A stretch of 63,574 nt of DNA, the filler included, from Welwitschia mirabilis (taxonomy: Eukaryota): assembly GCA_051453625.1 (NCBI GenBank). It is 5 parts of one record of this genome, joined end to end, with 100 filler letters (N's around TTAATTAATTAA, not from the genome) between each part and the next. Parts side by side here need not be neighbours in the genome. Positions count along the whole stretch, not along the records: positions 1 to 31,226 come from JBOZIK010000001.1; 4 more parts are not named here. One strand, given 5' to 3'. The position numbers and the translations under genes were made by a program. The notes under the pieces are model-generated. The model had not been told where the DNA came from. It saw nothing but the letters and a program-made list of their open reading frames with translations, and did not search any database. This document shows positions 1-61,813 of this stretch, in pieces; the stretch's first letter is position 1; the number at the start of each line of letters is the position of its first letter.

Positions 1-3000
1 ATCTGATAATAGAATTAAGAGGCTTATAGTAGGAGGTCGAGTTACAGAAAATGAAGAAGAAATAGCAAAGGAACTGAAGACCCATTTTTAGAGAGTTTAG
101 AAATGGGACGATATCACCCCTAGCTTAATTCCAAGGAACAAGAAGGTTTTGGAGGATAATAATCAAATGCCGAGTAAACCCTTAAGTAGAGAGGAGATCC
201 TAGCTGGAGTCAGATCGATAAAAAATAATCGAGCCCCTGGGACAGATGGATGGCCAGTTGAGCTCTTCAAAACTTATTTTTCTATCCTAGGAGATAACCT
301 CCATGATGCAATGTAGGAAATTTTCCATAAACAATGGATTCCTAGAGAGATGAATAGAACCAAAGTAGTTCTCATATCCAAAAAAAGGGGATGCCAGTAG
401 ACTAGAAGACTTTAGACCCTTATGGTTTACAATGTTATTTATAGAATCTTCGCAAAAATTATGGTTGGCCAAGTCACCCTCTTACTCCCTAATGTGATTT
501 CAGGGAACCAAGCCAGCTTCATTCATTCTAGGTATATTTAAGACCACATCCTTTTGACTTATAAAATTATTCACTTATTAAAAAGCATGAATTTCTGCTT
601 CTCATTGCTAAATTAGTTATTGCAAAAGCTTATGACTTGGTTAGTTGGTAATCTTAATTATGCATTCTTAGGAAAATTGGCTTCTTTCAAAATATTATTA
701 ACCCATGGCTAGACATGCAGGCTTCGGCTGAATTTAGTGTAGAGGTCAATAGTCACAGATCAAACTACTTCTTAGTAGGAAGGGGCTTGAGACAAGGGGA
801 TCCTCTATCCCCATACCTCTTCTTGTTTGTAATGAATGTTTTATAAGTTTTCTTAAAAAACAACAGAGTTACAAGAATCAAAATTGGAAGCCAAATTTTT
901 CTCAATAACCACTATGTAGACAATACTATTATCATGATCAAGGTAATCAGTCAACAAGCAAAATCTATAAAAAATGTTATAAATACATTTACAGAGGTAA
1001 CATGACTTCATACTAATTAGAACAAATAATGAATACATACCTTAGATAGACAATGTATCAAAGGGGGCGAAATTGCTCGCATCATGAATGCAAAGTTAGG
1101 AGACCTACAGGACATCTTCCTAGGCATTTCTTTATGAAAGTGGCACAAGACAAATACTTGGAACTACATTCTGGAATATATACAAAGGAGGTGCAACTCC
1201 TGGAACAACAATTTTGTATCTTTAAAGGCTAAAAACATTCTTACAAATTCCTATATAATTTCATCCTTTTGATATATAGCTTCTGTTATCCCCTCTCCCC
1301 CAAAGAAAAAAAAAATAATTCAAAAAATTGATAGATCTTAAAATATTTTATATGATCAAGGGGAAAAGACCACCATAAAATACATCTATGTAAATGAGAA
1401 ATCATAGCCTGTCCTAAAGAATTAGAAGGATGGGGCTCACAAGAGCTCAAAGGATTTTAAAGAGATTATAAGAGGGAGGAAAGTCTAGGAGTGACTTAAT
1501 AAATCACAAGTATAGAAACTCGACAATTGAACATGGAGTGTCTCATCTTTGAAAGCATCTCTACAAAGCTAACTAACAACTTTCTGATTTGAACATTGCT
1601 TAGAATAAAACATCCAAATAGATCCTGATCAAGAAATATGACAAACAAGAAGGTTACAAAAAGCATTAGAGGGGCCAAATACAGGAGAAAATTAAAGTCT
1701 TTTACTGGCCGAAAGAGCCCCACCAAATCTTGATAAGAGACCAATTATNNNNNNNNNNACAGAAATAATTTAGCCTCTCTTTCATCAATGCGCCTAGAGT
1801 AAGGAGCTAATTGCATTAATGACTAACTACCATCAAAGTAGTGGTGCCTTTGACATGCATTCAGTTAATGGGATTCACTTGACGTTATGAAAGATATGGC
1901 AAATCAGAAATAGTTTAATTTTTAATAACATTCCCCTTCCCTTCCCTATTTACACATCCAGAAAGATAATCTTCAATCACTTTAAAATTAAAATTTCCAT
2001 GGAAGACACTCCAAAGTATGAGCCTGTTGACCTAGGCCTCTTCGAAAGATGCCCGGAGCTGTGGAAAAGAAATACAAGCAGTGGAATAGGTAACCAATCT
2101 GCATAAACTGAGAGGAGATATGGGGGTTAATATTACCCCATTTTATAGGCGATGGAGAGGAGGAAGAATAATTTTAGAAGAATCCTGATAAAAATTTTAG
2201 AAGAATCTTTTACCAGACTATTGGAGGTCCCAGCAGAAGGAGAGAGGATCCTGTTTGGAAGTAAAGGCTAATGAGAAGCCCTTCATTTATTTTCAAGTGG
2301 AATCCCAAAGCTGCCCAGTGGGCATATCAGCAGGAAGACGCTACCGCCCCCATGGGGACTCGGGGCAAAACTAGTGGGTAGATATTTCATTTAATCTGGT
2401 AATTGTTCTAACCTTTCTGGAATTCATTTTATGTTTCTTAAGGCTCTTAACCTGGGACACTAGGTGAATAGCGAAAGGACTCCTCTAGGAACTTAGGGTT
2501 AATTATTGCTCTTTAGAGAGAAGCTCAAGAAGCTCAGGCTAGAGAGGTCCCTCCCCCTCCTCCCCCTTACCGTCCTCGCCAAACCAACTTTAGAAGAATT
2601 TGTACCAGAAGTTCCTCCTTCACTCAGAACCCTATCCTAAAAGAAATAGCAGCTCCTTCTAGCTCTAGCAGTAGGGGGCATCTTTGCCCTAGCTTCCTCA
2701 GTAGGTCCATCTTCATCCTCGGCCTAATATAAATCTCCCGAGGAGCATCCTTTTAGCCCAACTCAAGCTCAGTCTCCACCTCATCCTTTTTCAGCTTCGG
2801 GCCCTTCCTCACCGGCTAACCTGCTCAGGAATCCTAGCACTCTTTCCCTCCAGCTTTAGACCCTAGTACTCTCTAAAGCTCTACCTTTGACTCCTCTTCT
2901 TTGAAACGCTAACCCCAAACTTAAGATATTGACATGAATACAGCTAGGAAGGAGGTTCTTCTGGTAACATTGCATGGGTTGAAAATATGTCCATTTGTTA

Positions 3001-3021
3001 CTCTGGGTCTCTCTCATCAAG
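1..3021 (+). mobile_element. L1-clade LINE copy 1: decayed ORF2 (RT to C-terminus) plus ORF3, cut by the window start and a gap
   Basis: RT motifs RAPGTDGWP (~230), GRGLRQGDPLSPYLF (778-822) and YVDN (913-924, decayed YADD). ORF2 TAA at 2104-2106, ORF3 ATG at 2120. J-domain start CPFVTLGLSHQ at 2988-3020, then a gap. Colinear with ~4838-7947 but clearly diverged from it. Confidence 0.93.
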
Positions 3022-3121
3022 NNNNNNNNNNNNNNNNNNNNNNNNNNNNNNNNNNNNNNNNNNNNNNNNNNNNNNNNNNNNNNNNNNNNNNNNNNNNNNN
3101 NNNNNNNNNNNNNNNNNNNNN

Positions 3122-3757
3122 ATCATGATTAAATAAACCCAATTAGTTTTAGCCAGATTCTATGTGTGGATGAGCCTCGAAGACACTAAGAAAATTTAAT
3201 CCATAAAGTTTAGATCCAAATGGAGAACTTATGATCTAGAAGTTACATATGATAATCTTCTCATCCCATGCTCTACCTATGGGAAATCAAGATACTCCTA
3301 GGGAAGATGTACTCCTCCCAAGAAGAAATGCTCTCATTGTGGAAGATTGAATCATCTACAAGAAGAATGCCTGAAGAGATTGATATACATTAGAGAAAAG
3401 TAAAAGGAAACTTATACCTTTTGTAAAAAGACTAGACATAATTAGAGCATATGCAGGCACAAGCAGCAGAAGGAACAAACTAAAAGAAGCACCACCATTT
3501 TTCTAAAGAAAAGCAAGAGAAAGAAAGATCCAAAATAGGAAAACCCATTTCAACCTCTCATGGACGAGAATAACACCCAACTAAACATTCAAGATGATGA
3601 ATCTAATAAAGTGAAAACCCAGACAAAGGGAAGGCCTAGCAAAAGAACCTTATGAGAGTGAGAAACAGCAAAGAACATTGCAAATGGTTTCTAAGCTATA
3701 ATTGAAAACACATTGAAAAAAGAACAAGTGCCTAAAAAGGGGTAAAAACACCCCTAA
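3122..3757 (+). pseudogene. LINE ORF1 (gag-like) 3' remnant with zinc knuckles
   Basis: Intact CCHC CSHCGRLNHLQEEC at 3329-3370. It is preceded by a decayed second knuckle CSTYGKSRYS*GRC (~3268-3310) and a VTYDNL motif. Basic tail GRPSKR..E..NIANG. Several in-frame stops. Confidence 0.8.
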
Positions 3758-6700
3758 TAAATTGTCTCTCATGGAACTATAGGGTATTAGGGTTATCCTA
3801 CAAAAAAAAAAGATCCTACAAAATCTAATTACTTAATATAATATTGATTTAGTCTATCTTTAGGAGATAAAGTTAAAACAAAACATGAAAAACATGAAGA
3901 TGGGTTGACACTAGACCTCATTTAGCATAGCAGCCCAAGGTAAATTCAGTGGTCTTTTAGTTTTTACTAAAAAAGAGGCAGATCTGATTTGTAGCAGCTA
4001 GAATCACATTAGGATTTTTCTTAAGAATAAAGGATGGACCATTACAAATATCTATAGTCTGCAACACAACCTAGACAAGGCTACAGTATTATAAGAAGCT
4101 CAAAAGAATGTAGTGGACAAATCCAAATGGACAATTTTGGGCTACTTAATCAATGCCTCCATCGCTAGGAAAAATTAGATGGGGACAACTAAAACTCTCG
4201 AAGGGCCTCTATCCTAAAAGATTTCTTAGTAAGATATTCTCTCACAGATATACCCATCACTAGTGACAAATACACATGGTCAAATAGAAGAGTAGGTATA
4301 GAGCTAATAATGTCCAAGATTGACAAAGTGATGGCTGAGAAACATCTAGCTAAACATCTTATTGAAGCTAGTGTTCTAAATAGGATTGCCTTGGATCACC
4401 ATCCCATTATGCTTAGAGTTGAGGCCTTTTCACTTTTGAAAACCTTGTTTCATATGGAACGGTACTGGATCAACCAAACAGAAATTAGAATGCTCTTAAA
4501 AAAGATCTGGGCATAGTATGATGATATACAACCTATCACTTTCTTATATAGAGGCTTCAATACCTTGAAGGCTCACATAAGATACTAGAGAAAGAAAGAC
4601 AAGAAGAGGTTTGACTCAAAATTTGAAATTGAGGAGGACCTCAAATGCATTTAAACTAAATAGGAGAAGGGAGGTAGTTAGGATAGCCTTAAAAACAGAG
4701 AATACCAGTGCCTAATGGAGATCCAAGAAATACATGAGAACAAAAAAAATTATTGAAGAGAATGATCAAGGATCAAGTGGCTTAAAGAAGGTAATAGACA
4801 TAGTAGATTTTTCTTCTAGTAGGACAACCAATAAAGATTTAATAACAGAATTAAGAGGCTTAGAATAGAAGGCTGAGTTGCAAAAAATAAAGAAGAAATA
4901 GAAAAGAAATTACAAACCCATCTTCAGAGAGTCTGGAAATGGGATAATATCATCCCCAGCCTAATTCCAGAGAACAAGAAGGTTTTGGAGGAGGATAACC
5001 AAATGCTAAGCAAACCCTTAAGTAGAGAGGAGATACTAGCTACAATCAGATTGATGAAGAATAACCGAGAACCTGGTCTAAATGGATGGCCAATCATACT
5101 CTTTAAAACTTATTTCTCTATCCTAGGAGATAACCTCCATGATGCAATGTAGGAAATTTTCCACAAATGGTGGATTTCTAGAGAGATGAATAGAACTAGA
5201 GTAGTTCTCATACCAAAAAAAAAGGATGCCAGTAGACCAGAGGACTTTAGATCCTTAGGGATTTGCAATATCATTTACAAAATCTTTGCAAAAAATTATG
5301 GTTGACTGAATCATCCCCTTACTTCCCAATGTAATTTTAGAGAATCAATCCGACTTCATTCATTTCAGGTATATCCAAGATCAAATCTTTTTAATCCATG
5401 AAATTAGTCACTCCATTAAAAAGCAAAAATTTCCACTTCTCATTGCTAAACTAGATATTGCAAAAGCTTATGACTCAGTTAGTTGGTAAGCTTTAGGGTG
5501 AATTCTTAGGACAATCGGCTTCTCTCAAGATATTATGAACCTATGGCTAGACATGCAAGCTTTGGTTGAATTTAGTGTGGAGATTAAAAGTTATAGATCA
5601 AATTTATTCTCAATAGGAAGAGGCTTGAGATAAGAGTATCCTCTATTCCCATACCTTTTCTTGTTTATGATGAATGTTTTATAGGTTTTCTTAAGAAAAA
5701 ACGAAGTTACAACAATCAGAATTAGAGGTCAAATGTTTCTCAATAACCACTATGCAGATAATACTATTAACATGACCAAGGCAACTAGTTAACAAGCAAA
5801 ATCTATAAAAAAATTCCATGAAGACATTTAAAGAGGCAACAGGGCTTTACATTAATTGGAAAAAATGAAAAATATATACCCTGGATAGGAAATGTATTAT
5901 AGGGGGCAAAATCACTCACATCATGAATACAAAGTTAGGAGACCTTCAGGACACCTACCTGGGTATTCTTTTACAGAATTGGCATAGGAAAAATACCTAA
6001 AACTACATTATGAAATCTATACAAAGGAGGTGCAGCTCTTAGAAGAACAATTTTCTATCTTCAAAGGCTAAAATCATTCTTACAAATTCCTATCTAATTT
6101 TTTTCTTTTAGTATATAGCTTCCATTATCATCCCCAAAGAATATTATTTAAAAAATTGACAGGATCCTAAAAGATTTTATATGGTCAGGGGGAAAAAGAC
6201 CATCATAGAATACATCTATGTAAATGGGAAATCATAGCCTATCCTAAAGAATCATAAGGATAAGAAATATAAAAACTTGAAGATTGTATTCTTACAGGAG
6301 CTCAAAGAATTTTAAATAAATTACAAGAGGGAGGATAGCCTTGGAGTGACTTAATAAATCACAAGTATAGAAAATGGACAATTAAACATGGAGTGTCTTA
6401 TCTATGAAAGCATCTCTGCAAAGCTAATCAACAACTTTTTAATTTAAACATTGCTCAAAATAAAACATCTAAATAGATCCTAATCAAGAAATATGGCAAA
6501 CAAGAAGGCTACAAAAAGAATTAGAGGGGCTAAATACCAAAAAATATTAAAGTCTTTTACTGGATAAAAGAACATCATTGAATCTTGATAAGAGATGTAT
6601 TATTAAAAAGAGAATTTAAAGTTGATATCAAATGTCCCATCAGTCAGTCCATTACAAAAAAAATTTAGTATCTCTTTTATTAATGTGCTTTAATTAAGGA

Positions 6701-7001
6701 GCTACTTGTATTAATGACTAAGTATTATCAAAGCAGCGGCACCTCTAAGATGTATTCAGTTGATGGGGTTCGCCTAACTTTATGGTAGACATGAAAGATC
6801 AGAAATAGTTTAATTTTCAATAATGCCCCCCTTTTCTTTCTTATTTATACAACTAGAAAGATAATTTGCAATCACTCTCAAATTAAAATTGCCATGGGAG
6901 CCACTCCAACGTATGAGCTTACTGATCCAAAAATCTTCGAAGGATGCCCAGAACTGTGGAAAAAAAATCCAGGTGATGGGGTGGAGAGTCCTTTTGCATA
7001 A
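3757..7001 (+). pseudogene. LINE ORF2: APE endonuclease, reverse transcriptase and degenerate zf-RVT; many stops and frameshifts
   Basis: INCLSWNYR start (ATA, probably a decayed ATG). YTWSNRR, SKIDK and LDHHPI (endonuclease). EPGLNGW, KLDIAKAYDSV (5448) and YADN (5751-5762). CPISQ..YLFY*C (~6633) and W*T*KIRNSLIF (~6783). TAA at 6999-7001 is at the same position as in copy 1. No RNase H seen. Confidence 0.92.
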
Positions 7002-7014
7002 ATTGAGAGAAGAT

Positions 7015-8135
7015 ATGGGGGCTAATATCGCCTCGCTTTATAGGCAATGGAGAGGAGGAAGAACAACTTTTAGAAGGATCCCAATAAAAATTTCAGAATA
7101 ATCTTTTACCAGTTTGTTAGAGGTCCCAGCGGAAGGTGAGAGGATCACGTTCAGAAACAGAGGCTAATGAGAAGCCCTTCATTTCTTTCTAGGTGGAATC
7201 CTAAAGCTTCCTAGTGGGTATATCAGCAGGAAGGCACTACCGCCCTCGTGGAGACTTGAGGCAAAACTAGTAGACAGATATTTCATTCAATTTGGTAATT
7301 GTTGTAAGCTTTTGGAATTCATTTTATGTTTCTTAAGGCTCTTGACCTAGAACACCAGGTGAACCTTCCCTACTTCTTCATTCAAGTCCTTAAGCGAAAG
7401 GACTCCTCTAGGCACTCAGGTTTAATTCTTTCTCTTTGGAGAGCAGCTCAAGAAGCTCGGGCCAGAGAGGCCCCTCCCCCTCCTCCCCCTTCTCGTCCTC
7501 GCCAAACCACCCCTAGGAGAACTTCTTCTAGAAGTTCCTTCTCACATTGGAACCCTGTCCTGGAAGAAACAATAACTTCTTCCATCCCTAGTAGTAGGAG
7601 GGCATCTTCACCTCCAGTTCCCTCAGCAGGTCCATCTTTATCCTTGGCCCAATAGAAATCTCCTGAGGAGCCTCCTCCTAGCCCAACTCAAGCTTAGTCT
7701 CCATCTCATCCTTCCCCAGCTTCAGGCCCTTCCTCACTAGCTAACCCTACTCAGGAATCCTAGCACTCTCCCCCTCTAGCTTGAGACCCTAGTACCCCTC
7801 AAAGCTCCACCTCTGACTCCTTTTTTTTGGAGCCCCAACCCCAAACTCAGGATGTTGACATGAATATAGCCAGGAGGGAATTTCTTCTAGCGACATTGCA
7901 TGGGTTGAAAAGATGCCCATTCGTTACCCTGGGTCTCTCTCATCAAGCTCTTCCCTAGGCTATAAAATTGACTTATAGGAAGAAAGCTCTATGCATTCAT
8001 CCAAATAAGAACCTGGCTAGTGCTAAAGAAGTGAAGATAATCAATTGAGCTTTTGAGGTGCTCTCAGATGACCTGGGCAGATTCTTACTTGAGAACAACC
8101 ATCATAACATGTTCCCTTACTGCAAAGGTCTATAG
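7015..8135 (+). pseudogene. LINE ORF3 (about 373 aa reconstructed): N-terminal globular domain, Pro/Ser-rich linker, C-terminal DnaJ J-domain
   Basis: ATG at 7015. A 1-nt deletion near 7310 is absent from copies 1 and 3. From 7326 the frame continues into 7914-8081, which reads CPFVTLGLSHQALP*AIKLTYRKKALCIHPNKNLASAKEVKIIN*AFEVLSDDLGR and fits the J-domain pattern. Terminal TAG 8133-8135 is shared with copy 3. Confidence 0.85.
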
Positions 8136-9138
8136 AGGACTAGTATCCTCTTTCTTTTTGGTTTTTCCATGGTAATCCAAGTTCTTTGTAAGTTCTGGTT
8201 TCTAGAGGTGGTTTTGCCCCCAGTTTTCAGCAATCTTAAGTCCTTTTATATGGTTGTTTCCATTAGTACTTACATCCTTTTAGGCAACTTCTTATTATGT
8301 TGTTTTTTGAGGGGTTGTTTTGCCCCCTTTTTTGGTTTTCTATTCTCTCTGCTATGAACAATTTTATGCTTCTGTAACACTCGAGCGATTTTGCCCTCTA
8401 ATATACATTTCCTAGTTTAATACATATACTTTTTTCCCAAAAAAAATATTGAATTGCAAATACTTTTATGATCTATTAAGTAATTAACCTTAATTTTTTG
8501 GTGATCTTTTATAATTTTGATTTTTTATTAACATAATAATAATGATAATTATTTATGAATTTGTTTCATAAGAAAAGAAACTAATAAAGAAAAGTTATCT
8601 AAAATGTTAAAATCAAATAACTCCATTTATATAAAGGCATCTGATATACATAGTAAGATTGTTAAATTGAAAATTTTCACAGAGTTATATAATAATAAAA
8701 AAATATTTACATAATTGTAATATAAAATCTATATTTTATTTATTCATTCATGTATCTAATCTAAGTCTACAAAGTAAAACTACTTAATAAAAATAGATAG
8801 TTAATGTCGTTGGTAAAAGAAGTGGATACAAAAAATTAAGTGTAATACATTCTATCATGATATTTTCTTTATTGTATTTTATGTTGATCGATTCGATGGA
8901 TCTTGAAATTCATGAGATGTAAAAAGTATGTGTACTATTATCAATGAATTAAGAATTATGAAAAATTAGATTTTACTCTATCATAACTTTTATCCTTCTT
9001 GATACCTGTGAAAGTACTTAATTTATGAAACATATATATTTATTAAAATTAAAAAATTTTATCTTGATGTATCACATGAAAATTTGAAAAAAAAAAACTC
9101 TACATAAAAAATATTGACTCTTTTAATGCTATTACACA

Positions 9139-10585
9139 TTTTTTTTGAAAAAATATATGTATTAGACTAGGAAATATACATCAGAGGTCAAAATCACCTG
9201 AGTGTTATAGAAGCATTAAACTATTCATAGCAATGAGAACAGCAAACCAAAAAAGGGGGACGAAACCGCCCCTCAAAAAAATGGCATATCAAAAAGTTGC
9301 CTAAAAGGGTGTAAGAACTAATAGAAACAGCCATAGAAAAGGACTTAAGATTATTGAAAATCAGGGGCAAAACCACCCCTAGAAGCTAGAACTTATAAAG
9401 AACTAGGAATACTAAGAAAACAAACTTAAAAAAAAAGAGGATTCCAGTCCTCTACAGTCCTCTACAGAAAGGAAACATGTTTCCATGGTTATATTTAAGT
9501 AAAAATCTGCCTAGGTCATCTAAGAGCATCTCAAAGGCTTAATTGATTTTCTTGAATTCTTCAGCAGGAGTCAGGTTCTTATTTAGATGGAGGCGAATAA
9601 CTTTCTTCCTATAAGTCAACTTTATAGCGTGAGGTAGAGCTCGGTGAAAGAGACCTAGGGTCACAAATGGGCATCTTTTCAAACCCTAAATCATTGCCAG
9701 AAGAACCTCCCTCTTGCCTGCATTCATGTTCATATCCTGAGTTTGGAATTGGGGTTTCATAAAAGAGGAGACAAAAGCAGAGCTTTAGAGGAAACTAGGG
9801 CCTAAATCTAGAGAAGGATAGTTTTGAGCATGCCCACCTTGTTCCTAGGGAGGGTGAGCTGGAGAAGAAGGGCCTAAAGCTGAGGAAGGATGAGAAGGAG
9901 GCTGAGCTTGAGCTAAGCTAGAAGGATGCTCCTCAGGAGTTTTAATGGGCTAGGAGCGAAGACGATTCTTTTAAGTGAGCTAAGGGCAAAGGCACCCTCC
10001 TATTACTGGGGCTGAAATGAGCTGTTGTTTCTTCAAGAGTAGGGTTCCTAGCTAAGGATGAACTTCTAAAAGAAGTTCCCTAGAGGGGGTCTGATGAGGA
10101 CATTGAGGGGGAGGAGGGGGAGGGGTCTCTCTGGCCTAAGCTTCTTATGCTGCTCTCCAAAGGGATTAAACCTAAGTGCCTTTCGGAGTCCTTACGCTTG
10201 AGCACTTGAATGAATAAATAGGGAAGGTTCACCTAGTGTCCTAGGTCAAGAGTCTTAAGAAACATTAAATGAATTCTNNNNNNNNNNNNNNNNNNNNNNN
10301 NNNNNNNNNNNNNNNNNNNNNNNNNNNNNNNNNNNNNNNNNNNNNNNNNNNNNNNNNNNNNNNNNNNNNNNNNNNNNAAACATTAAATGAATTCTAAAAA
10401 GCTTAGAACAATTACTAGATTGAATAAAATATCTATCGACCAGTTCTACCCTAAGTCCCCATGGGGGCGATAATGCCTTCCTGCTAATATACCACCGGGC
10501 AGTTTAGGAATTCTATATGAAAAGAAATGGAAAGCTTCTCATTGGCCTCTGCTTCTAAACGGGATCCTCTCGCCTTCCATTGGGA
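9139..10585 (-). mobile_element. 5'-truncated LINE copy 3 containing only ORF3, 3'UTR and poly(A), with TSD
   Basis: Poly(T) at 9139-9146. The sequence is the reverse complement of ~7125-8446. AATGCTATTACACA occurs at both 9125-9138 and 10586-10599. J-domain at ~9506-9673 reads CPFVTLGLFHRALPHAIKLTYRKKVIRLHLNKNLTPAEEFKKIN*AFEMLLDDLGR. Confidence 0.92.
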
Positions 10586-11883
10586 AATGCTATTACACAT
10601 TATTAATGCATGTTTGAATAAATTAAATATGATTATGAGTATATAAAGAATTATTAAATAGCTAGTAAAGAAAATGATATATGTAATAAACTTTGTTAAT
10701 TAAAGTAAGAGGATTACTCATCCTAGGTAGGTACATGAGTCATAAATATGATTTCTTCTTGTCATTTACAAATCAATGTTACTCATCACTTAAGTAGATT
10801 CAATTTGTTAAATTAATATTATCTAATCTAATGTAATGAATCTTATATAATTTAATATGATCATACTACATTGTGTTAATTCGATCAAAAATCCTTAGTC
10901 TATAATTTACCTATAAATAGAGTTTTTATCTCTCTTTTAAACTAATTGTTCATTATTATGCAAGTATATCCTATAAATTACCTTCTCATTTTTTCCTCTC
11001 CTTATTTTCCTTCTCATCCTCTTACTATAAGTGTTGAAGTTGAAGCTTGGAGATTGAAGCCTGAGATCTGTATTTAAAGATCTTAGCTTAAGACATGATT
11101 AAATCTTCGTCGATCTTCATAGAATTGTAGTTTCATATCATTCCTTTTTTAAGTAGGTAACATTTACTTATTTTATTGGAATAAGAGAGTATTACCTTAG
11201 GCCATTTTATATCTTTATTATAATATTTCTTTTAATGAAATTTTCCCTTCCATTTGGGTAAAACCAAGACAAGGGAGATATTCGAGAGATCTATTTACAT
11301 GTTTCATTTAGAAGATTACTAAGGAAAATAATGAACTAAGTGATTAAAGGGTTAATTTAATATTTGAGTACACATGTTCATTTTACATCATATATTATTG
11401 AATGCTTTTCATAATTGTATTATGCACCAAATGCATATTAAAACCCTCTTATTACCTTCCAGTCAATCATAAGGCTTACTGAATTTGTTTACTTTAAATT
11501 AATCTCACATATTGATTTTTCCTAATTAATGTAGACTTGTATTAGTAATTATTTACTTTGTATATTACATAGATTAATTAGTTTAAGTATTTATACTAAT
11601 CTTATCATCTATGCTTGATTATATTTATTTATGAATTATTATGTTCTTATTATAGCCAAAGTTCATTTTCCCCCAAAATGGTAACATAAGTTTAAAATAT
11701 GATAACTTATTAAGTATTGAAAATACTAAATAATATTGTTTTACAAGTTTAAGTACTTGTTAAGATTATAAAAATTTAAAAATGGTAATTTTTTGGATAA
11801 TTTTTAAAAATTATTTTATGGTAATAACTTAGAAAATAAAATCAAAAGTAACGAGTGATTATTTTTACTTTAAAAAATTAATA

Positions 11884-31226: not shown

Positions 31227-31326
31227 NNNNNNNNNNNNNNNNNNNNNNNNNNNNNNNNNNNNNNNNNNNNTTAATTAATTAANNNNNNNNNNNNNNNNNN
31301 NNNNNNNNNNNNNNNNNNNNNNNNNN
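31227..31326. other. Artificial scaffold-join spacer
   Basis: 44 N + TTAATTAATTAA + 44 N = 100 nt, with stops in all six frames. The same spacer recurs at 45331-45430, 52780-52879 and 61714-61813. Confidence 0.95.
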
Positions 31327-38600: not shown

Positions 38601-39626
38601 NNNNNNNNTAAATTAACCTCATTGTTTAACTATTAATTAAGCAATAATCATTGTATAGCTTAAAAACTTACTTGAACCACATTCTCTGCACCAATCTCCT
38701 CGATGCATTCTCTAATAACACCAAATAAGTATTCGGCATTCTTCACATGCTTAGATGCATCTATGCTCTTCAAAAACATGATTCTAGATGCAGAGCCAAC
38801 CAAAAAATTCAATAAAGTTCTACCTCTTTTGTCTTCCCACTCATCACACATTAAACTCCAACCCTTTTCTTGCCATGTTTCATGATGGTTTCTCGACATG
38901 CCATCAATGTCAGATTTTACTTCATCAAGTAATTCTGTTCTCATCTCACTATATGTTGGTGGTTTGAAATTAGGCCCTACTTTATAAATTGCATTGTACA
39001 TCTCTTTTAACATGGTAGTAGAACGAAAACGATTAAGAACCAACATTTGAAAATACCAAAATTTGGCCATTTTCTTTTTGGCTTCATGCATCAATTTTCT
39101 TCATTTGGGGAGTATTGTGCAATGTATGTTCTACTAATGAAGGAGAAGATGAACTTCCCAATCCTCCACCACCCCCACTTCTGCTTGTTTGAGCAGTTGT
39201 TTTGCTTGACATAAGATCTATTTGCTCTCTCTCACTTTTTTGAATCCGAGGAGGAGGGGCATAAAATGTTCTTGACTGGCTTAAAGTATCTCCACCAGCT
39301 GGACAAGCTTCCACACCTGGAATGTTTGAGCAAGACTGAAATTGCTTTTGGTTTCTTTTTGCAATCATTTCCTCTGCCTGTCTAGAAGCACCTCTTCTTT
39401 TACCTTTCTTTGCAAGCATTGCCATGCACTCTTGCCTGATTTTTTCACTGATTACACCTCTTAGATCAAGACATTTGCAAATATCATGCCCTAGAATGCC
39501 TGCAATATGGTATTTCAATCATGTAACTCCACCAAAAACACTCATACCACAAAACCTACAAATAACTTCTGTTGCCTTTGTTTCAGAAGTACAACACTGC
39601 CAAGCTTTATCTTTAGGGCAAACCAT
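35696..39626 (-). pseudogene. hAT transposase (BED finger, DUF659-type region, hATC dimerisation), intron-containing, disrupted
   Basis: MVCPKDKAW..ICRFCG..GGVT*LKYHIAG (BED finger, stop at ~39520). FKPPTYSEMRTELL..GWSLMCDEWED..RTLLNFLV..FLKSIDAS..IGAENVVQV. LTKPCSASG/CARNWSVFEHIHSNKHNRLTTERLNDLVFVHYNLKL. Acidic tail. Frameshift near 39090. Confidence 0.93.
37432..37707 (+). mobile_element. TRIM (terminal-repeat retrotransposon in miniature) nested in the hAT
   Basis: LTR of ~115 bp ending GGCCCAACA (37537). PBS TAGTATCAGAGCC (tRNA-iMet type, 37540-37552). Interior ~100 bp. PPT AGAGGGGGAGA (37627-37637). Second LTR starts TGTTGCG at 37639. Flanked by gaps. Confidence 0.88.
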
Positions 39627-41738: not shown

Positions 41739-42809
41739 ATAACACTATTCCTGGTCTAAGTGATGATGTTATCAGTATCTATAAGGGGTATGCAATTAAT
41801 ACTCAAATATATTTGTTTCAGTCATTGTTTTATAGTTGCTAAAGGATTATTTCTTTTATTTTCCCATTTAATCAATTAATTCTTGTTTCTTGACTTGCTT
41901 ATACAGTGTGGGGCAGATTCTTAGTAGGTACACCACAGGCAAGCTTCCAAAAGCTTTAAAGGTTGTGCCATCATTGACCCATTGGGAGGAGGTTCTTTAC
42001 CTAACCGAGCCAACAAAATGGTCTCCAAATGCGATGTATCAAGTAACTCGAATTTTTGTATCAAACATGAATGCAAAGATGGCTCAGCGTTTTTGCTACC
42101 TTGTGTTGCTTCCACGTGTCAGGGAGGATATCAGTAAGAACAAACGTCTTCATTTTGCTCTGTACCAAGCATTGAAAAAGACTCTCTACAAACCACAAGC
42201 CTTTTTCAAGGGCATTCTTCTACCTCTCTGTCAGGTCTGCATTTAGTTTTCAACATCATGCAGTGTCATTAGTATGTAAGCTTTTGCATAGGATTTGGAA
42301 ACATTAAAGAGGATACGCTTGGTTTAGTACTAGTTATCCATCCTTTTGTATCATATAAATGATTTATTGATATATTGAAGTGAATGGTTACTGAAATTTT
42401 GAGATTTCCGCATCACTTTCTTTCAATGTTCTATTATCTAATATTGTTTGAGATATTCAATTTGATTCTGCAGTCAAGGACATGCAACTTACGTGAAGCT
42501 GTCATTATTGGAAGTGTCATTCAGAAAGTTTCAATACCCTCATTACATTCCAGGTGTGTTTCTACATTCTACAAAGATCTCAGTTTTAATAAAATAAATT
42601 TGTTTCTTTGGTGCACATATAGGATAAAGTTGTGAATGAGGTTCATTTGTTCACTCTTTTTTTGGTAATATATTTGAAGAGGTTTTAAATTAGATGCCAG
42701 AGTTTCTCATTTTAACTTCTGATTCAGGTTTATTAAACTTTGTTGAACTTTTATGCAACAGTGCAGGACTGATGAAAATAGCAGAAATGGAATATTGTGG
42801 CACTAACAG
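41739..42809 (+). CDS. BYSL: Bystin (Enp1, 40S ribosome biogenesis factor), four internal exons: 41739-41787, 41907-42234, 42474-42553, 42762-42809
   Basis: GT-AG introns splice to an open frame: [67 protein letters not shown]...[71 protein letters not shown]. No 5' or 3' exons were found in the window, so functional status is uncertain. Confidence 0.85.
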
Positions 42810-45430
42810 GTATCATGCTGACAAATCATGGATCATTTGCACTTTTTAAGACAACATACTTTGAAGTTTGAGTGAATCATTGCCATGACATATTTTCTAT
42901 GTTATTAATTCATTCAATGCTGTATTCATTTGTGAAATTTAGACTAAGTTTGATACTATGGTATCTATCTATGATTTGAAAGACAGATGAAGAATCTTAG
43001 TTTCAGTTGGAATAATTTTGATACATAGACAAAGGAGAGCCATGCTAGAATACACAGAAAGAAATTATGGCTTTTGGAATGGGTGAATTTCTTCAATTAT
43101 TTGCTCAAAAGAGTATGCAAGTAAAATCACATAAAACAGGGTGTTAGACACACGACCTACATTTTCTTGAACATAGGAAATGCACAACATAGTTCAGGGT
43201 CTAAAGTCTTGAAATTTATAATGTGTACCATACTTTTATGCTTGGTCTCTAACCTCTGTCAGTATGTCGACTCTTTGGAACAGCTGAAAGGGCTAGCTGA
43301 CTCAGTTATTTTTCTTTAATGCATGGTGATCTGGTGTTATTACTTCTACTGTTCTAGCTGTGAATGTATTTTGCTTCCTAAATGATAAACGAAATATGTA
43401 ATGCTGTCAATCTAGACTTTAATTTGTAAATGATGGAATCACGTATATTTTTTATGTTTGAGTTAGAATACAAGTCTCATGTGAGTTTGTCGTATTTTTA
43501 GATAGTGTTCCCAATCCCATCCCATTTGTATGCCATTCTTCATGACTACTGATCTGAGTGAAAGTACAAAATTGGAGTCCCTGCTAGAATGTTACGTTTT
43601 CTTGCCTCTCACCACTATGTTCTGACACACTTTTGAGTGCAGTGATCCTTTTAAACCATTTTTGCATGTTGCTTTGTTGTGGTAATTAGTATGTACATTC
43701 TCTTTCTAGGATATTTGTCTTTATTCAAACTCATGGTCATGCTAAAGACCATGCCTCTTAAATTTGAATGTTTGATAATACTTAACAACATGGTATTTGT
43801 AGAAGTCTGGGGGGAGAACATGTACCCTTAAAAATTGCATTTGTTAGAAGTTACAACCTTTTGAGTTTTCTCTTAGAACTGTACCTTCTTTATTATTTCC
43901 ATGTACATGCACTGGGAAATTTCTGNNNNNNNNNNNNNNNNNNNNNNNNNNNNNNNNNNNNNNNNNNNNNNNNNNNNNNNNNNNNNNNNNNNNNNNNNNN
44001 NNNNNNNNNNNNNNNNNNNNNNNNNNNNNNNNNNNNNNNNNNNNNNNNNNNNNNNNNNNNNNNNNNNNNNNNNNNNNNNNNNNNNNNNNNNNNNNNNNNN
44101 NNNNNNNNNNNNNNNNNNNNNNNNNNNNNNNNNNNNNNNNNNNNNNNNNNNNNNNNNNNNNNNNNNNNNNNNNNNNNNNNNNNNNNNNNNNNNNNNNNNN
44201 NNNNNNNNNNNNNNNNNNNNNNNNNNNNNNNNNNNNNNNNNNNNNNNNNNNNNNNNNNNNNNNNNATTTCTGCATTGCACTCCTTTCTTGAGATCCCACA
44301 AATGAGTCATCAGATTTTGATTAGCATTGTCCAATAGCTAGATGGTGTTGATGCAGTTTTCTTTGGATTTTGGAAGGTTAGTTGCTTGAGGACAACTGAG
44401 GTATGAGTTGTTATCTCTTCTTTGGTGTGCTGGGTGGAAGACTATCAATTCTGTCACCCAGCAAGGAAGAAATCCATAACTTAGCGGTGTGTATCATCGT
44501 TCTTCAAGTTCTTGTTATGGAACTATTAATCCCTGAAACAAGCAAAAATCAAAGATTGCCACTTGTGCAAGATACGACCATTGAAAGAACTCCAAAGTTT
44601 CCTTCTTTAGATTGTTTGACCGTATAAAACAAGCAAAAATCCACTCATGCAAGATACGATCATTGAAACAGCTCCTGATGTTTCCTTCTTATATGCTGTT
44701 TGATCTCACACAGAAACCTTGTTGATGAGGTTTTCATGACATGTGATATGAGGTTTTTAAAAAGCTTGAAACTTTAGCTATTGTCTCCTCTTTCAGAATT
44801 TCACCAATGACCATAGAATTACAGGTTTATTTTGCATTCATCCCAGTGCTAGACATGATTTTTTTTTTTTTTTTTTGGCATAGAAGAGGTTGTTAGAATC
44901 TTTGAACCTTGTAATTATCATTATTGTCCATGAAACTAGAGGTTCAAGGAAATGCCCTTGTTTTGGCACCAGAAATAGATGCTTCCTTTCCATGGGCTCA
45001 GAATGTTGAATCACCCCAAGGACTTTGTTTAGTTGAATTGTTATCTAATAATTGAAGCATTGGTGGAAAGTTGGAAAGAATATTAGATCTTCTTAGGGTG
45101 TTAAGAAGAAATCTTCTAGGACAAGTTTTAACTTAAGGTTGTTTCTTCTCACTCAACGAGAATGTAATTGTCATGTTTACCCAACAGGTAATATACCCTC
45201 TTCATGTTCTTGTGAGGTTCTATCTAGTGTATAGTTCATCGGTTTCTTGTGAGTCATGAAAGCTAACTATAGAAAGATATCTCTAAAAATTAGGTTTGTG
45301 AACATAGATCCCTAAAAAAAACATTTTTGTNNNNNNNNNNNNNNNNNNNNNNNNNNNNNNNNNNNNNNNNNNNNTTAATTAATTAANNNNNNNNNNNNNN
45401 NNNNNNNNNNNNNNNNNNNNNNNNNNNNNN

Positions 45431-46576
45431 AGTAAAGAACTTCACTTCTGCCAACAGATTTACCTTCACACTTGCTATGTTCATGGACATCGTCTCTTTT
45501 GTATGAACAGCCCTTTCTAACAGCTAAGGCTTCACTAGGGGCATCTACCATAGTAGTCTTATATGCATCCAGTAGCTTTGAAATAACAATATTTAGAGAT
45601 GGTAAAGTTCTAGAAGCAGCAGTCAAGGTAGTCCGAACCATTTCTGAGGATTCTGGTAAGGAACTCAATACAACAACAACCCAGAGATCTTCTTTGAAAT
45701 TTATACCCAGATCATGGATCTAAGCAAACTAGTCATTCATCTCATCCAAATGACTTGGCAAAGACGTTCCTTCCTTCATTTTAATCTTGAAAACCCTGTT
45801 AATGGTATAATATTTATTCATTCCAGTGGGTTGGTCATACCTTTCATTCAACATTTTCCATAAGACATCTGCCTCGGTTATTCGCCTGTACGTTGCAAGT
45901 ATATTGTTGCCAAGACACGGATGAATTCTGGTGAGAGCTTTTCGATTGAGTTTTTCCCATTCTTTGTAAGGTATTTCTTCAACCAATCAGCATCTGACAA
46001 TCCGGATGTTGCTTTCACTTCGCCCTTTGATTTGAGGACAACATCTCAAGCCTTCAAGAAAAGAACATCCTCCATCAAGATTTTCCAATTTTCCCAGTTC
46101 TCGACTCCAACCAATTTGTCCGTCGTTGACAAGTGCTCCATCTTGTACAAACCCTAGTGCTTAAATCTGCAACCCCAAAAAATTTCACCACTCGCACGCA
46201 CCTGCTCCCTACAAATCTTTACTAAAAATCAATTGCTAAACAAAGGGGAACAATAAACAGAAGTACAAAACACACACAGATTTACGTGGAAAACCCTTGC
46301 GGCAAAAACCATGGGAAGTAGGCAGAGCTCTTAATGTTATTCAAGAAGCAAAAAGAATCACCATACAAAATAAACCCCTAAGCAACTTTAGATACGTTTA
46401 GTGTTTCAAGCCAAGACAATCTAGAAACTTCCTCTCCCTTTCTTTTCTTTTCTTTCATTTAAATACCCCAAGGAGTTAAAACATAACCTTCTTTTACAAT
46501 CTTACAAAAGGGGAATCAATGTTAAAACGTAACATCACAATATAAACAAGACAAGTTTGCCTTCACTTTTCCAACA
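45431..46576 (-). mobile_element. Copia LTR retrotransposon 5' end: LTR ~46234-46576 plus gag remnant
   Basis: gag ATG at 46141 (MEHLSTTDKLVGVENWENWKILMEDVL...EWEKLNRKAL...KIKMKEGTSLPSHLDEMN...LSSLPES), UBN2/gag_2 type. The LTR contains GATTTACGTGGAAAACCC and ends CCAACA. It is inserted at the end of the bystin duplicate arm. Confidence 0.85.
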
Positions 46577-50910: not shown

Positions 50911-51596
50911 CCATCACCTCAAAGAGACAATAATAGAATCCTGATGCCACTGTTAAGGCCAATATACGCAATAACATTTTGGAATACAATGTGCCCTCTA
51001 AATCTTGTTAAATTATCATTATATTTGAAATCTTGCGTAATTCATGATTTTCTAGTCTAGTTCTTATTCTCGACAAGTTCTTGATTAACTAAATTTTGTC
51101 AAATTCATTACGAGTTCTTGATTACTCTTGTCTAATTCTTAATTGTCAAATATGGAGGCCCCATCCCCTGGCATGCCAAGGACAACGGCTGGGCACATTT
51201 TTCATTAGCTTCAATTATAATTTATACATAATGCAAGTAACAATATTCCCCCTAATTCACTCCCTTAAATCCACATTTCATGGATTCATTGTTATCGTCC
51301 TTCTAACTTTGGATCTTTGACTTGACCACCCACTAAAGTGGGAATTTTTTCATCCTCTCTCTCTTTTTGTTTTTGCCCATCTAGCCTTAANNNNNNNNNN
51401 NNNNNNNNNNNNNNNNNNNNNNNNNNNNNNNNNNNNNNNNNNNNNNNNNNNNNNNNNNNNNNNNNNNNNNNNNNNNNNNNNNNNNNNNNNNNNNNNNNNN
51501 NNNNNNNNNNNNNNNNNNNNNNNNNNNNNNNNNNNNNNNNNNNNNNNNNNNNNNNNNNNNNNNNNNNNNNNNNNNNNNNNNNNNNNNNNNNNNNNN

Positions 51597-52779
51597 AGTA
51601 TGAAATTTGGAATACCATCAACTCTATGAAAAAGAATAAGGTGTTAGGGCCTGATGGATTCACTATAGAGTTCTATCAAACTTTTTGGGATATTATCAAA
51701 GTCGATGTTTGTAATGCCATCCAAGAAATGTTCGAGAAAAGTACCTTTTACAAACCTTTCAATGATACACTTATCACCTTATTCCCAAAACAGAAGATGC
51801 AGAAAGTCGTCACCAATACAGGCCAATCAGTCTTTGTAATGTTTTCTATAAGATTGCACTAAGATTATTGCAGACAGGTTAAAAGTGCTTCTCCCAGATA
51901 CGGTCTTCCCATCTCAAAACAGTTTTGTTTCAGGAAGAGTTATCCACAATAACATAATCCTCACTGATGCATTCCTTCATTTGCATCACAGAAGAAACAN
52001 NNNNNNNNNNNNNNNNNNNNNNNNNNNNNNNNNNNNNNNNNNNNNNNNNNNNNNNNNNNNNNNNNNNNNNNNNNNNNNNNNNNNNNNNNNNNNNNNNNNC
52101 ACAATAACATAATCCTCACTGATGCATTCCTTCATCTGCATCACAGAAGAAACAAACTTGCAATGTTCCTTAAGCGTAATATAGCTAAAGCATTTGATAC
52201 GGTCCACTGGGAAACAATAGACTATGTATTACAGTAGCACGATGTACCCGTGCTCCTCAAGCGTCTAATTCACTTTTATATCTCGACGCCAACCTTCTCT
52301 GTTATGGTCAATGGGAAGAGATACAGCTACTTGCAGGGTAATAGCAGCCTGCATCAAGATGACCCCCTTTCTTTGAGTCCTTTTGTTCTGGTGATGCATT
52401 CTTAGCCAAACNNNNNNNNNNNNNNNNNNNNNNNNNNNNNNNNNNNNNNNNNNNNNNNCATATCCCATCCTTCAGTTCACAGATGACACTCTCCTATGCC
52501 TAGACTCTAGCCTTCCCATGGCAAGGCAAACTCGCAATTTGGACTTACAATAAATTGACACAAATCAAAAACTCTTCCTCAACAACACTCCCCGAGCAAG
52601 GAAGACAATTATTTCTTAGGTTTTCCAATGCTTGCAAGCCATGTTTCCTGATGCCTATCTTCGTCTTCCTTTTAATTCAAATCAGATTGTTGATAACATT
52701 TGGCCTCATTTGGTGAAGAAAATTGTAGCTCGATTAACTAGATGGGACAACAAGTTCTTATCGAGTGCAGGGAAAGTTC
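51597..52779 (+). mobile_element. L1-clade LINE reverse transcriptase fragment, a different family from copies 1-3
   Basis: KNKVLGPDGFTIEFYQTFWDII, FNDTLITLFPK, QNSFVSGRVIHNNI, KAFDTVHW, LHQDDPLS, LQFTDDTLL and WDNKFLSSAGKV. Confidence 0.92.
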
Positions 52780-52879
52780 NNNNNNNNNNNNNNNNNNNNN
52801 NNNNNNNNNNNNNNNNNNNNNNNTTAATTAATTAANNNNNNNNNNNNNNNNNNNNNNNNNNNNNNNNNNNNNNNNNNNN

Positions 52880-61713: not shown

Positions 61714-61813
61714 NNNNNNNNNNNNNNNNNNNNNNNNNNNNNNNNNNNNNNNNNNNNTTAATTAATTAANNNNNNNNNNNNNNNNNNNNNNNNNNNNNNN
61801 NNNNNNNNNNNNN

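Follow-up and report, generated by a model that had tools for sequence, protein, structure and literature searches.

Does the stretch that follows ORF2 of a LINE in Welwitschia mirabilis (GCA_051453625.1), at positions 7015–8135, hold a third gene through which the element supplied its own DnaJ (Hsp40) co-chaperone, as the initial annotation of this locus proposed, or a piece of host sequence carried along in the tail of the element? LINEs are not known to carry genes besides ORF1 and ORF2, apart from additions confined to certain lineages (RNase H or the primate ORF0, for example). The window, i.e. the whole stretch of 63,574 nucleotides analysed here, is eukaryotic and AT-rich and is broken by numerous N gaps; the non-genomic 100-letter joins between its parts (each composed of paired 44-N runs with 12 bases between) occupy 31227–31326, 45331–45430, 52780–52879 and 61714–61813.

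A high-copy L1-type LINE and its 3' unit

Self-comparison of the window revealed three copies of one LINE, 78–80% alike and all heavily decayed, and no further J-like segments or copies of this element beyond these three. Copy 1 (6–3021, plus strand, delimited by BLASTN) comprises a part of ORF2 with its stop codon and the post-ORF2 module as far as codon 32 of the J region; its translation reads ...DIDMNTARKEVLLVTLHGLKICPFVTLGLSHQ, it corresponds to 4842–7947 of copy 2 (79.3% over 3120 columns in BLASTN), and it is cut off by the N gap at 3022–3121. The 5' end of copy 2 (3122–8447, plus strand, from the self-comparison) falls in the same gap, which therefore conceals the 3' end of one copy and the 5' end of the next.

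Copy 2 opens with the end of ORF1 (3122–3700, plus strand), in whose frame-1 translation strings resembling CCHC zinc knuckles (CSHCGRLNHLQEEC) can be recognized by eye near 3250–3450; no Pfam match was found in this region at E ≤ 0.01. It is followed by a decayed ORF2 (3700–7001, plus strand), which contains a reverse transcriptase domain (RVT_1, 5277–5816, E 9e-11, 42.3 bits) and a zf-RVT match (6501–6701, E 5.2e-4, 21.1 bits, under the cut-off of 27.5) of the kind that we take to be typical for plant L1 elements, and which ends with the stop codon TAA at 6999–7001. The beginning of ORF2 looks endonuclease-like by eye (strings SWN... and DHHPI), with no Pfam match at E ≤ 0.01 in any of the three frames. 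The cheapest frame path through ORF2 requires 38 stops and four frameshifts. Judged by the RVT_1 match in its sequence, the element is an L1-type LINE.

Behind the ORF2 stop of copy 2 we distinguish, all on the plus strand, a decayed first part (7002–7460) with an ATG at 7015, i.e. 13 nt past the stop; a C/T-rich stretch (7461–7859), which has few stops in any frame and reads as a Pro/Ser-rich linker in one of them; the J-domain segment (7860–8135), delimited by the Pfam DnaJ match, a gap-free structure alignment and the codon table; and a 3' untranslated tail (8136–8446) that ends in an A-run (~8440–8447), where the homology between copies 2 and 3 stops. Copy 3 (9140–10585, minus strand, BLASTN 78–80%) contains the post-ORF2 module only. 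It corresponds to 7124–8446 of copy 2, with its J region at 9450–9742, and it ends in an A-run and is enclosed by an exact 15-bp target-site duplication, with the 3' side at 9125–9139 (AATGCTATTACACAT on the plus strand) and the 5' side at 10586–10600. This string has exactly two matches in the window and none in 100 shuffles. The target-site duplication, the A-run and the module-only content together indicate that copy 3 arose by an independent, 5'-truncated retrotransposition. The same 18 bases (AGAATTCATTTAATGTTT, element strand) flank the N gap at 10278–10377 within copy 3 on both sides; the gap therefore looks like a scaffolding artefact with no sequence missing.

The junction between the ORF2 stop and the module is common to copies 1 and 2. 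Contigs of two DNA runs (X1 and X2, carrying two organism labels) were placed on 5000–8700 at a likeness of at least 80%, which yielded 19,880 contigs from X1 and 17,194 from X2. Their depth over 7015–8447 is of the same order as over the end of ORF2, and past 8446 it drops from 8688/3469 to 645/488 between adjacent bins; 44 contigs of X1 and 48 of X2 diverge from the window behind 8446, where they continue with an A-run. From the contig numbers, the depth and the common 3' end we conclude that the family is high-copy and that its unit ends at 8446. It is very improbable that 7124–8446 constitutes a separate non-autonomous element sharing the tail of the LINE, with copy 3 as a full-length member: although copy 3 begins at 7124, inside the module, and has a target-site duplication of its own, copies 1 and 2 are unbroken from ORF2 through 7124, the depth shows no step at this position (1374/1137 in the bin 6984–7107 and 1518/1061 in the bin 7108–7231), and 5' truncation is the rule for LINE insertions. 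The three copies in the window are old and dead members of a high-copy family of plant L1-type LINEs, in which the ~1.45 kb after the ORF2 stop (7002–8446) is an integral 3' part, retrotransposed with the LINE, and the J segment is family-wide and fixed in the retrotransposed unit.

Some other observations concern the surroundings of these copies. Among the 19,880 contigs of X1, 691 are at least 99% alike to the decayed copy and 2597 are 95–99% alike; since the near-identical contigs exceed the expectation for one locus, they hint that the decayed region was duplicated at a later time, or that copies due to polyploidy or to haplotypes are present. Just past the 3' end of the LINE, 77–85 contigs per DNA run start to match at 8602, and many joints skip 8498–8602, which suggests that a second repeat family, or an AT-rich insertion that varies, lies from 8602 onward. 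Elsewhere in the window, reading of open frames revealed two adjoining frames of 146 and 144 aa (38660–39518, minus strand, ...LMCDEWEDKRGRTLLNFLVGS...), whose strings we take to be typical of hAT/DUF659-type plant transposase-related proteins; a 124-aa frame (41872–42246, plus strand), presumably an exon of a bystin/ENP1-type ribosome biogenesis protein and, if so, likely a host gene; part of the reverse transcriptase of another LINE (51326–51862, plus strand, ...NKVLGPDGFTIEFYQTFWDII...); and a Copia gag-like frame (45375–45719, minus strand). The self-comparison of the window found no J-like segment near either of the latter two.

The J-domain segment and its defects

With its stops read as X, the region 7842–8135 of copy 2 matches the Pfam family DnaJ (PF00226) with E 2.2e-9 and 37.7 bits, above the cut-off of 27.8, while the corresponding region of copy 3 (9450–9718, minus strand) scores just under it (E 7.4e-6, 26.4 bits). 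A profile built from the J regions of the three copies, compared with solved structures, identified 31 J-domain chains at E ≤ 0.01, the best of which were dnj-12 and DNAJA1, and could be aligned without gaps over 55 positions to the solved J-domains of class A/B (DNAJA-type); the core of the domain lies at ~7920–8095 in copy 2. Among 1.84 billion representative sequences the profile found 116 matches at E ≤ 1e-3, none of them at 1e-10 or better, led by a protein with six J-domains (55.2 bits). These matches span the J core only, i.e. they are generic J-domains, and in the 12 of the 116 sequences compared with the flanks of the J segment no resemblance to the flanks was found. On these similarities, the segment is to be regarded as a true homologue of J-domains of the cellular class A/B type, present once and in full within the tail, in sense orientation.

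The protein searches revealed no intact relative. Homologous-protein searches among sequences of near lengths gave 1562 candidates for the 276-aa read-through, none at E ≤ 0.001, and seven candidates for the 98-aa J region, none at E ≤ 10. In metagenomes, a scan with a peptide pattern returned 86 pattern matches, none of which was confirmed, and a scan with a DNA pattern returned no match.

The ends of the frame are conserved: the ATG at 7860 is kept in all three copies, and the terminal TAG (8133–8135) in both copies that reach it. Within the frame, the HPD site reads HPN in copy 2 (CAT-CCA-AAT, 7998–8006) and HLN in copy 3 (CAT-CTA-AAT, 9581–9589, minus strand). In-frame stops occur at 7956 and 8046 in copy 2 and, in copy 3, at the codons that correspond to those at 7899 and 8046, so that one codon in helix III is a stop in both covering copies (TGA at 8046–8048 in copy 2, TAA in copy 3). 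Copy 1 ends before the HPD site; this site and the stop at 8046 are covered by two copies only. Up to this point the initial annotation has been borne out, as regards the L1-type nature of the element, its three copies, the position of the ATG 13 nt past the ORF2 stop, the J-domain-like segment, the two strings at the HPD site and the stops at one and the same codon.

As to the ancestral state of these codons, position 8047 is A in 785.7 of 791.8 (X1) and 957.7 of 957.7 (X2) of the contig depth. Since ~99% of the depth shows A, the G at this position is private to copy 2 and the family codon is NAA, into which CAA (Gln) or TAA would fit; this refutes the CGA ancestor that was initially assumed for the shared stop. 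The two best solved J-domains have Q at the residue aligned to the 8046 stop, and in four RNA reads from a relative the bases ahead of 8048 are ...AATCA, i.e. CAA. Both observations make an intact CAA ancestor plausible, and the original J-domain very likely had CAA at 8046–8048. That no difference was noted at 8004 or 8046 among the 40 listed out of 1259 rows of differences was rejected as evidence on the family state.

How far back the defects reach can be estimated from the rate of decay, which for C>T is ~0.07–0.16 and for G>A 0.06–0.12 per copy (799 sites aligned in all three copies). With hot contexts allowed for, the joint probability that both copies were hit in parallel at both sites is ~1e-4 to 4e-3; because such parallel hits are improbable, the common ancestor of copies 2 and 3 probably carried at least one of the two defects. 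An ancestral HPD, from which the initial annotation derived HPN and HLN through transitions, is not supported: both covering copies lack the D.

Coding signal and origin of the segment

The initial annotation had read a frame of about 373 codons from the ATG at 7015. Taken literally, this frame is interrupted by 17 stops over its 374 codons and misses the J-domain, which is read in a different frame. The cheapest frame path over 7015–8132 has nine stops and one frameshift, at a cost of 12 vs 14.1 in shuffled sequence; because the module is no more open than shuffled sequence, its openness is no evidence of a gene. Frame openness was in fact rejected as a coding test altogether, ORF2 itself being near shuffled sequence (cost 50 vs 68.1), and codon-position chi-square tests proved powerless (P=0.146 for ORF2 itself).

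A single long ORF3 of ~373 codons from ATG 7015, with a J-domain at its C-terminus that a Pro/Ser-rich linker joins to an N-terminal domain, is on the whole improbable. Copies 1 and 2 do keep the ATG at 7015, the three-copy majority gives one frame from ~7045 to 8135 with ~9 stops, and there is a weak synonymous excess over 7015–7305 (19 vs 15.4, P=0.135) and 7171–7305 (12 vs 9.2, P=0.153). In addition, an Atlas feature search of 7308–7472 offered a weak lead, with the clusters "plant transposon protein" (0.91) and PF20167 (0.87), although by the tool's own figures a score of 0.9 arises by chance 4–10 times per 100, and a query with the remaining half of the first part returned nothing usable. 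The family PF20167 is related to an extra ORF of Athila retrotransposons, according to passages of PMC11728184. Against these leads stand the 17 stops of the literal frame and the TGA at 7168–7170, which is common to all three copies. The first part and the linker show dN/dS of 0.76–1.05, i.e. no coding signal, and in the linker (7461–7859) the synonymous counts are even under expectation (16 vs 21.0 and 25 vs 29.0); no frame of the linker shows a coding signal, and the scarcity of stops in all of them is due to its C/T-rich composition. None of nine translated N-terminal pieces matched any Pfam family (Transposase_32, PF20167, included) at E ≤ 10, and a homologous-protein search with an alignment of pieces of the first part, among near lengths, gave 521 candidates, none at E ≤ 10. 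Of the third ORF with a J-domain, what stands is the J-domain homologue within the retrotransposed unit; the continuous frame does not, its linker and N-terminal part being neutral.

The J segment on its own behaves differently. Between copies 2 and 3 its frame contains 26 synonymous and 36 non-synonymous differences, where 17.4 synonymous ones are expected (P=0.005, with differences shuffled among like bases, 5000 shuffles), whereas the other two frames over the same region have 10 and 15 and show no excess. The dN/dS ratio according to Nei and Gojobori is 0.30 in the J frame (CI 0.14–0.56) vs 1.29 and 1.09 out of frame, and for ORF2 (copies 1 vs 2) it is 0.46. The synonymous changes flank the stop at 8046 and extend to the shared TAG at 8133, and at the start of the J region copies 1 and 2 differ by eight synonymous and seven non-synonymous changes, with 4.7 synonymous ones expected (P=0.049). 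However, compared with expectations from per-base rates in the flanks, third-position differences are raised (29 vs 18.5), while those at first and second positions are not clearly lowered (33 vs 37.7). The excess is therefore ambiguous; it suggests, without going further, a signal compatible with a short ORF that was translated and selected. No RNA sequencing run is listed as containing sequence of the window. Reads from two RNA runs (200 from X14 and 52 from X17) are mostly less than 90% alike and about two thirds of them run on unlike the window, and no conclusion on expression was drawn from them.

How should the J segment then be interpreted? If the signal is taken at face value, active ancestors would have translated a J-only protein of ~91 codons, from ATG 7860 to TAG 8133, that recruited host Hsp70 either for folding or assembly of the particle of ORF1p/ORF2p and RNA or to interfere with silencing complexes. 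Decay would have set in once the copies were inserted, with parallel methylation-driven transitions producing the HPN and the stop that they share. Such an origin would account for the synonymous excess confined to the J frame and for the conserved ATG and TAG, and the domain has remained recognizable despite ~10% decay per copy; judging from the sequence context, the G>A change that turned D into N sits in a CHG context on the other strand, and the NAA family codon, aligned to a homologous Q, also suits it. We nonetheless consider a J-only ORF unlikely, since the pattern of raised third positions and barely lowered first and second ones is unlike classic purifying selection, both defects are present in both covering copies, none of the protein searches revealed an intact relative, and the frame begins 860 nt past the ORF2 stop, with no known translation route from LINE RNA. 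That active ancestors encoded their own Hsp70 co-chaperone in either form, as the J-only ORF or as a longer ORF3 ending in the J-domain, and that it was selected during their spread, is possible but doubtful; a co-chaperone or anti-silencing function of the segment can at most be conjectured.

The explanation that we prefer, and to which we give about an even chance of being correct, is that a segment of a host J-domain was captured into the tail of the LINE and has been a passenger rather than a gene that the element needed. We read it as a passenger because the J-domain is disabled in the copies seen, and probably was so already in their common ancestor, by the N in place of the D of HPD and by the stop in helix III. 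An ancestral master element would most likely have captured the sequence from a gene for a host J-protein, either by read-through 3' transduction of a host gene located downstream or by template switching, and the captured segment would then have been propagated as part of the 3' region of the LINE. The layout of the module (the C/T-rich stretch, the ATG, the J-coding stretch, a stop 13 codons past the domain, 310 nt and poly(A)) would fit the 5' end of a host gene taken up by read-through transduction, with the C/T-rich stretch as its 5' UTR, ATG 7860 as the start codon and a J-coding first exon next to it. The protein and metagenome searches returned no donor locus, so that the mechanism of capture is inferred, as are the host origin and the passenger status.

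Comparison with known systems

A survey of L1 domains in 503 genomes (PMC5203782) contains no occurrence of DnaJ in its main text, and full-text searches of the literature gave no description of a LINE or other non-LTR element with a J-domain or DnaJ extra ORF. Fixation of a J-domain relic in a whole family of plant L1 elements is unusual for such elements and means one of two things. Either a successful LINE can adopt a piece of a host gene for good or, if the frame was once open, a LINE could have enlisted the Hsp70 machinery through a co-chaperone of its own; this, if true, would make it the first non-LTR retrotransposon known with a chaperone-recruiting gene, and would offer a handle on the role of chaperones in the assembly of LINE particles or in their escape from silencing.

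Plant L1-type LINEs carry an ORF1 with a CCHC knuckle or RRM and an ORF2 with endonuclease, reverse transcriptase, zf-RVT and sometimes RNase H. The present element resembles them in the RVT_1 and zf-RVT matches, the CCHC-like end of ORF1, the A-run, the 5' truncation and the target-site duplication, but differs in possessing ~1.45 kb with a J-domain homologue past ORF2. The 3' transduction by L1 and the capture of host sequences by LINEs are said to have been described by Moran in 1999 and by Goodier and Pickeral in 2000. The likeness to L1 3' transduction lies in a sequence, here of presumed host origin, that is located between the body of the element and the poly(A) and is copied along with it; the difference is that the J piece is fixed in a whole high-copy family and not private to one insertion.

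Compared with J-domains of class A/B (dnj-12, 2och; DNAJA1, 2lo1; DNAJB1, 1hdj), to which it aligns gap-free over 55 positions with E of 5e-8 to 4e-7, the segment has the K/R-rich helix II and the helix III motif AFEVLSD. Unlike them, it has HPN or HLN for HPD and stops at 7956 and 8046, and it is located at the end of its reading frame, with no G/F or zinc-finger region after it. The T antigens of polyomaviruses carry intact, HPD-bearing J-domains, as shown experimentally. As selfish elements that use host Hsp70 through a J-domain of their own, they provide a functional analogy for a co-chaperone in the LINE, from which the J segment differs in being decayed and known from sequence alone. A parallel in the addition of a region to an element is offered by the extra ORFs of the LTR retrotransposons Athila and Tekay. 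These belong to another class of elements, and DnaJ has no occurrence in PMC11728184; yet there, as in the LINE family analysed here, a region that is possibly host-derived has been added beside the canonical genes.
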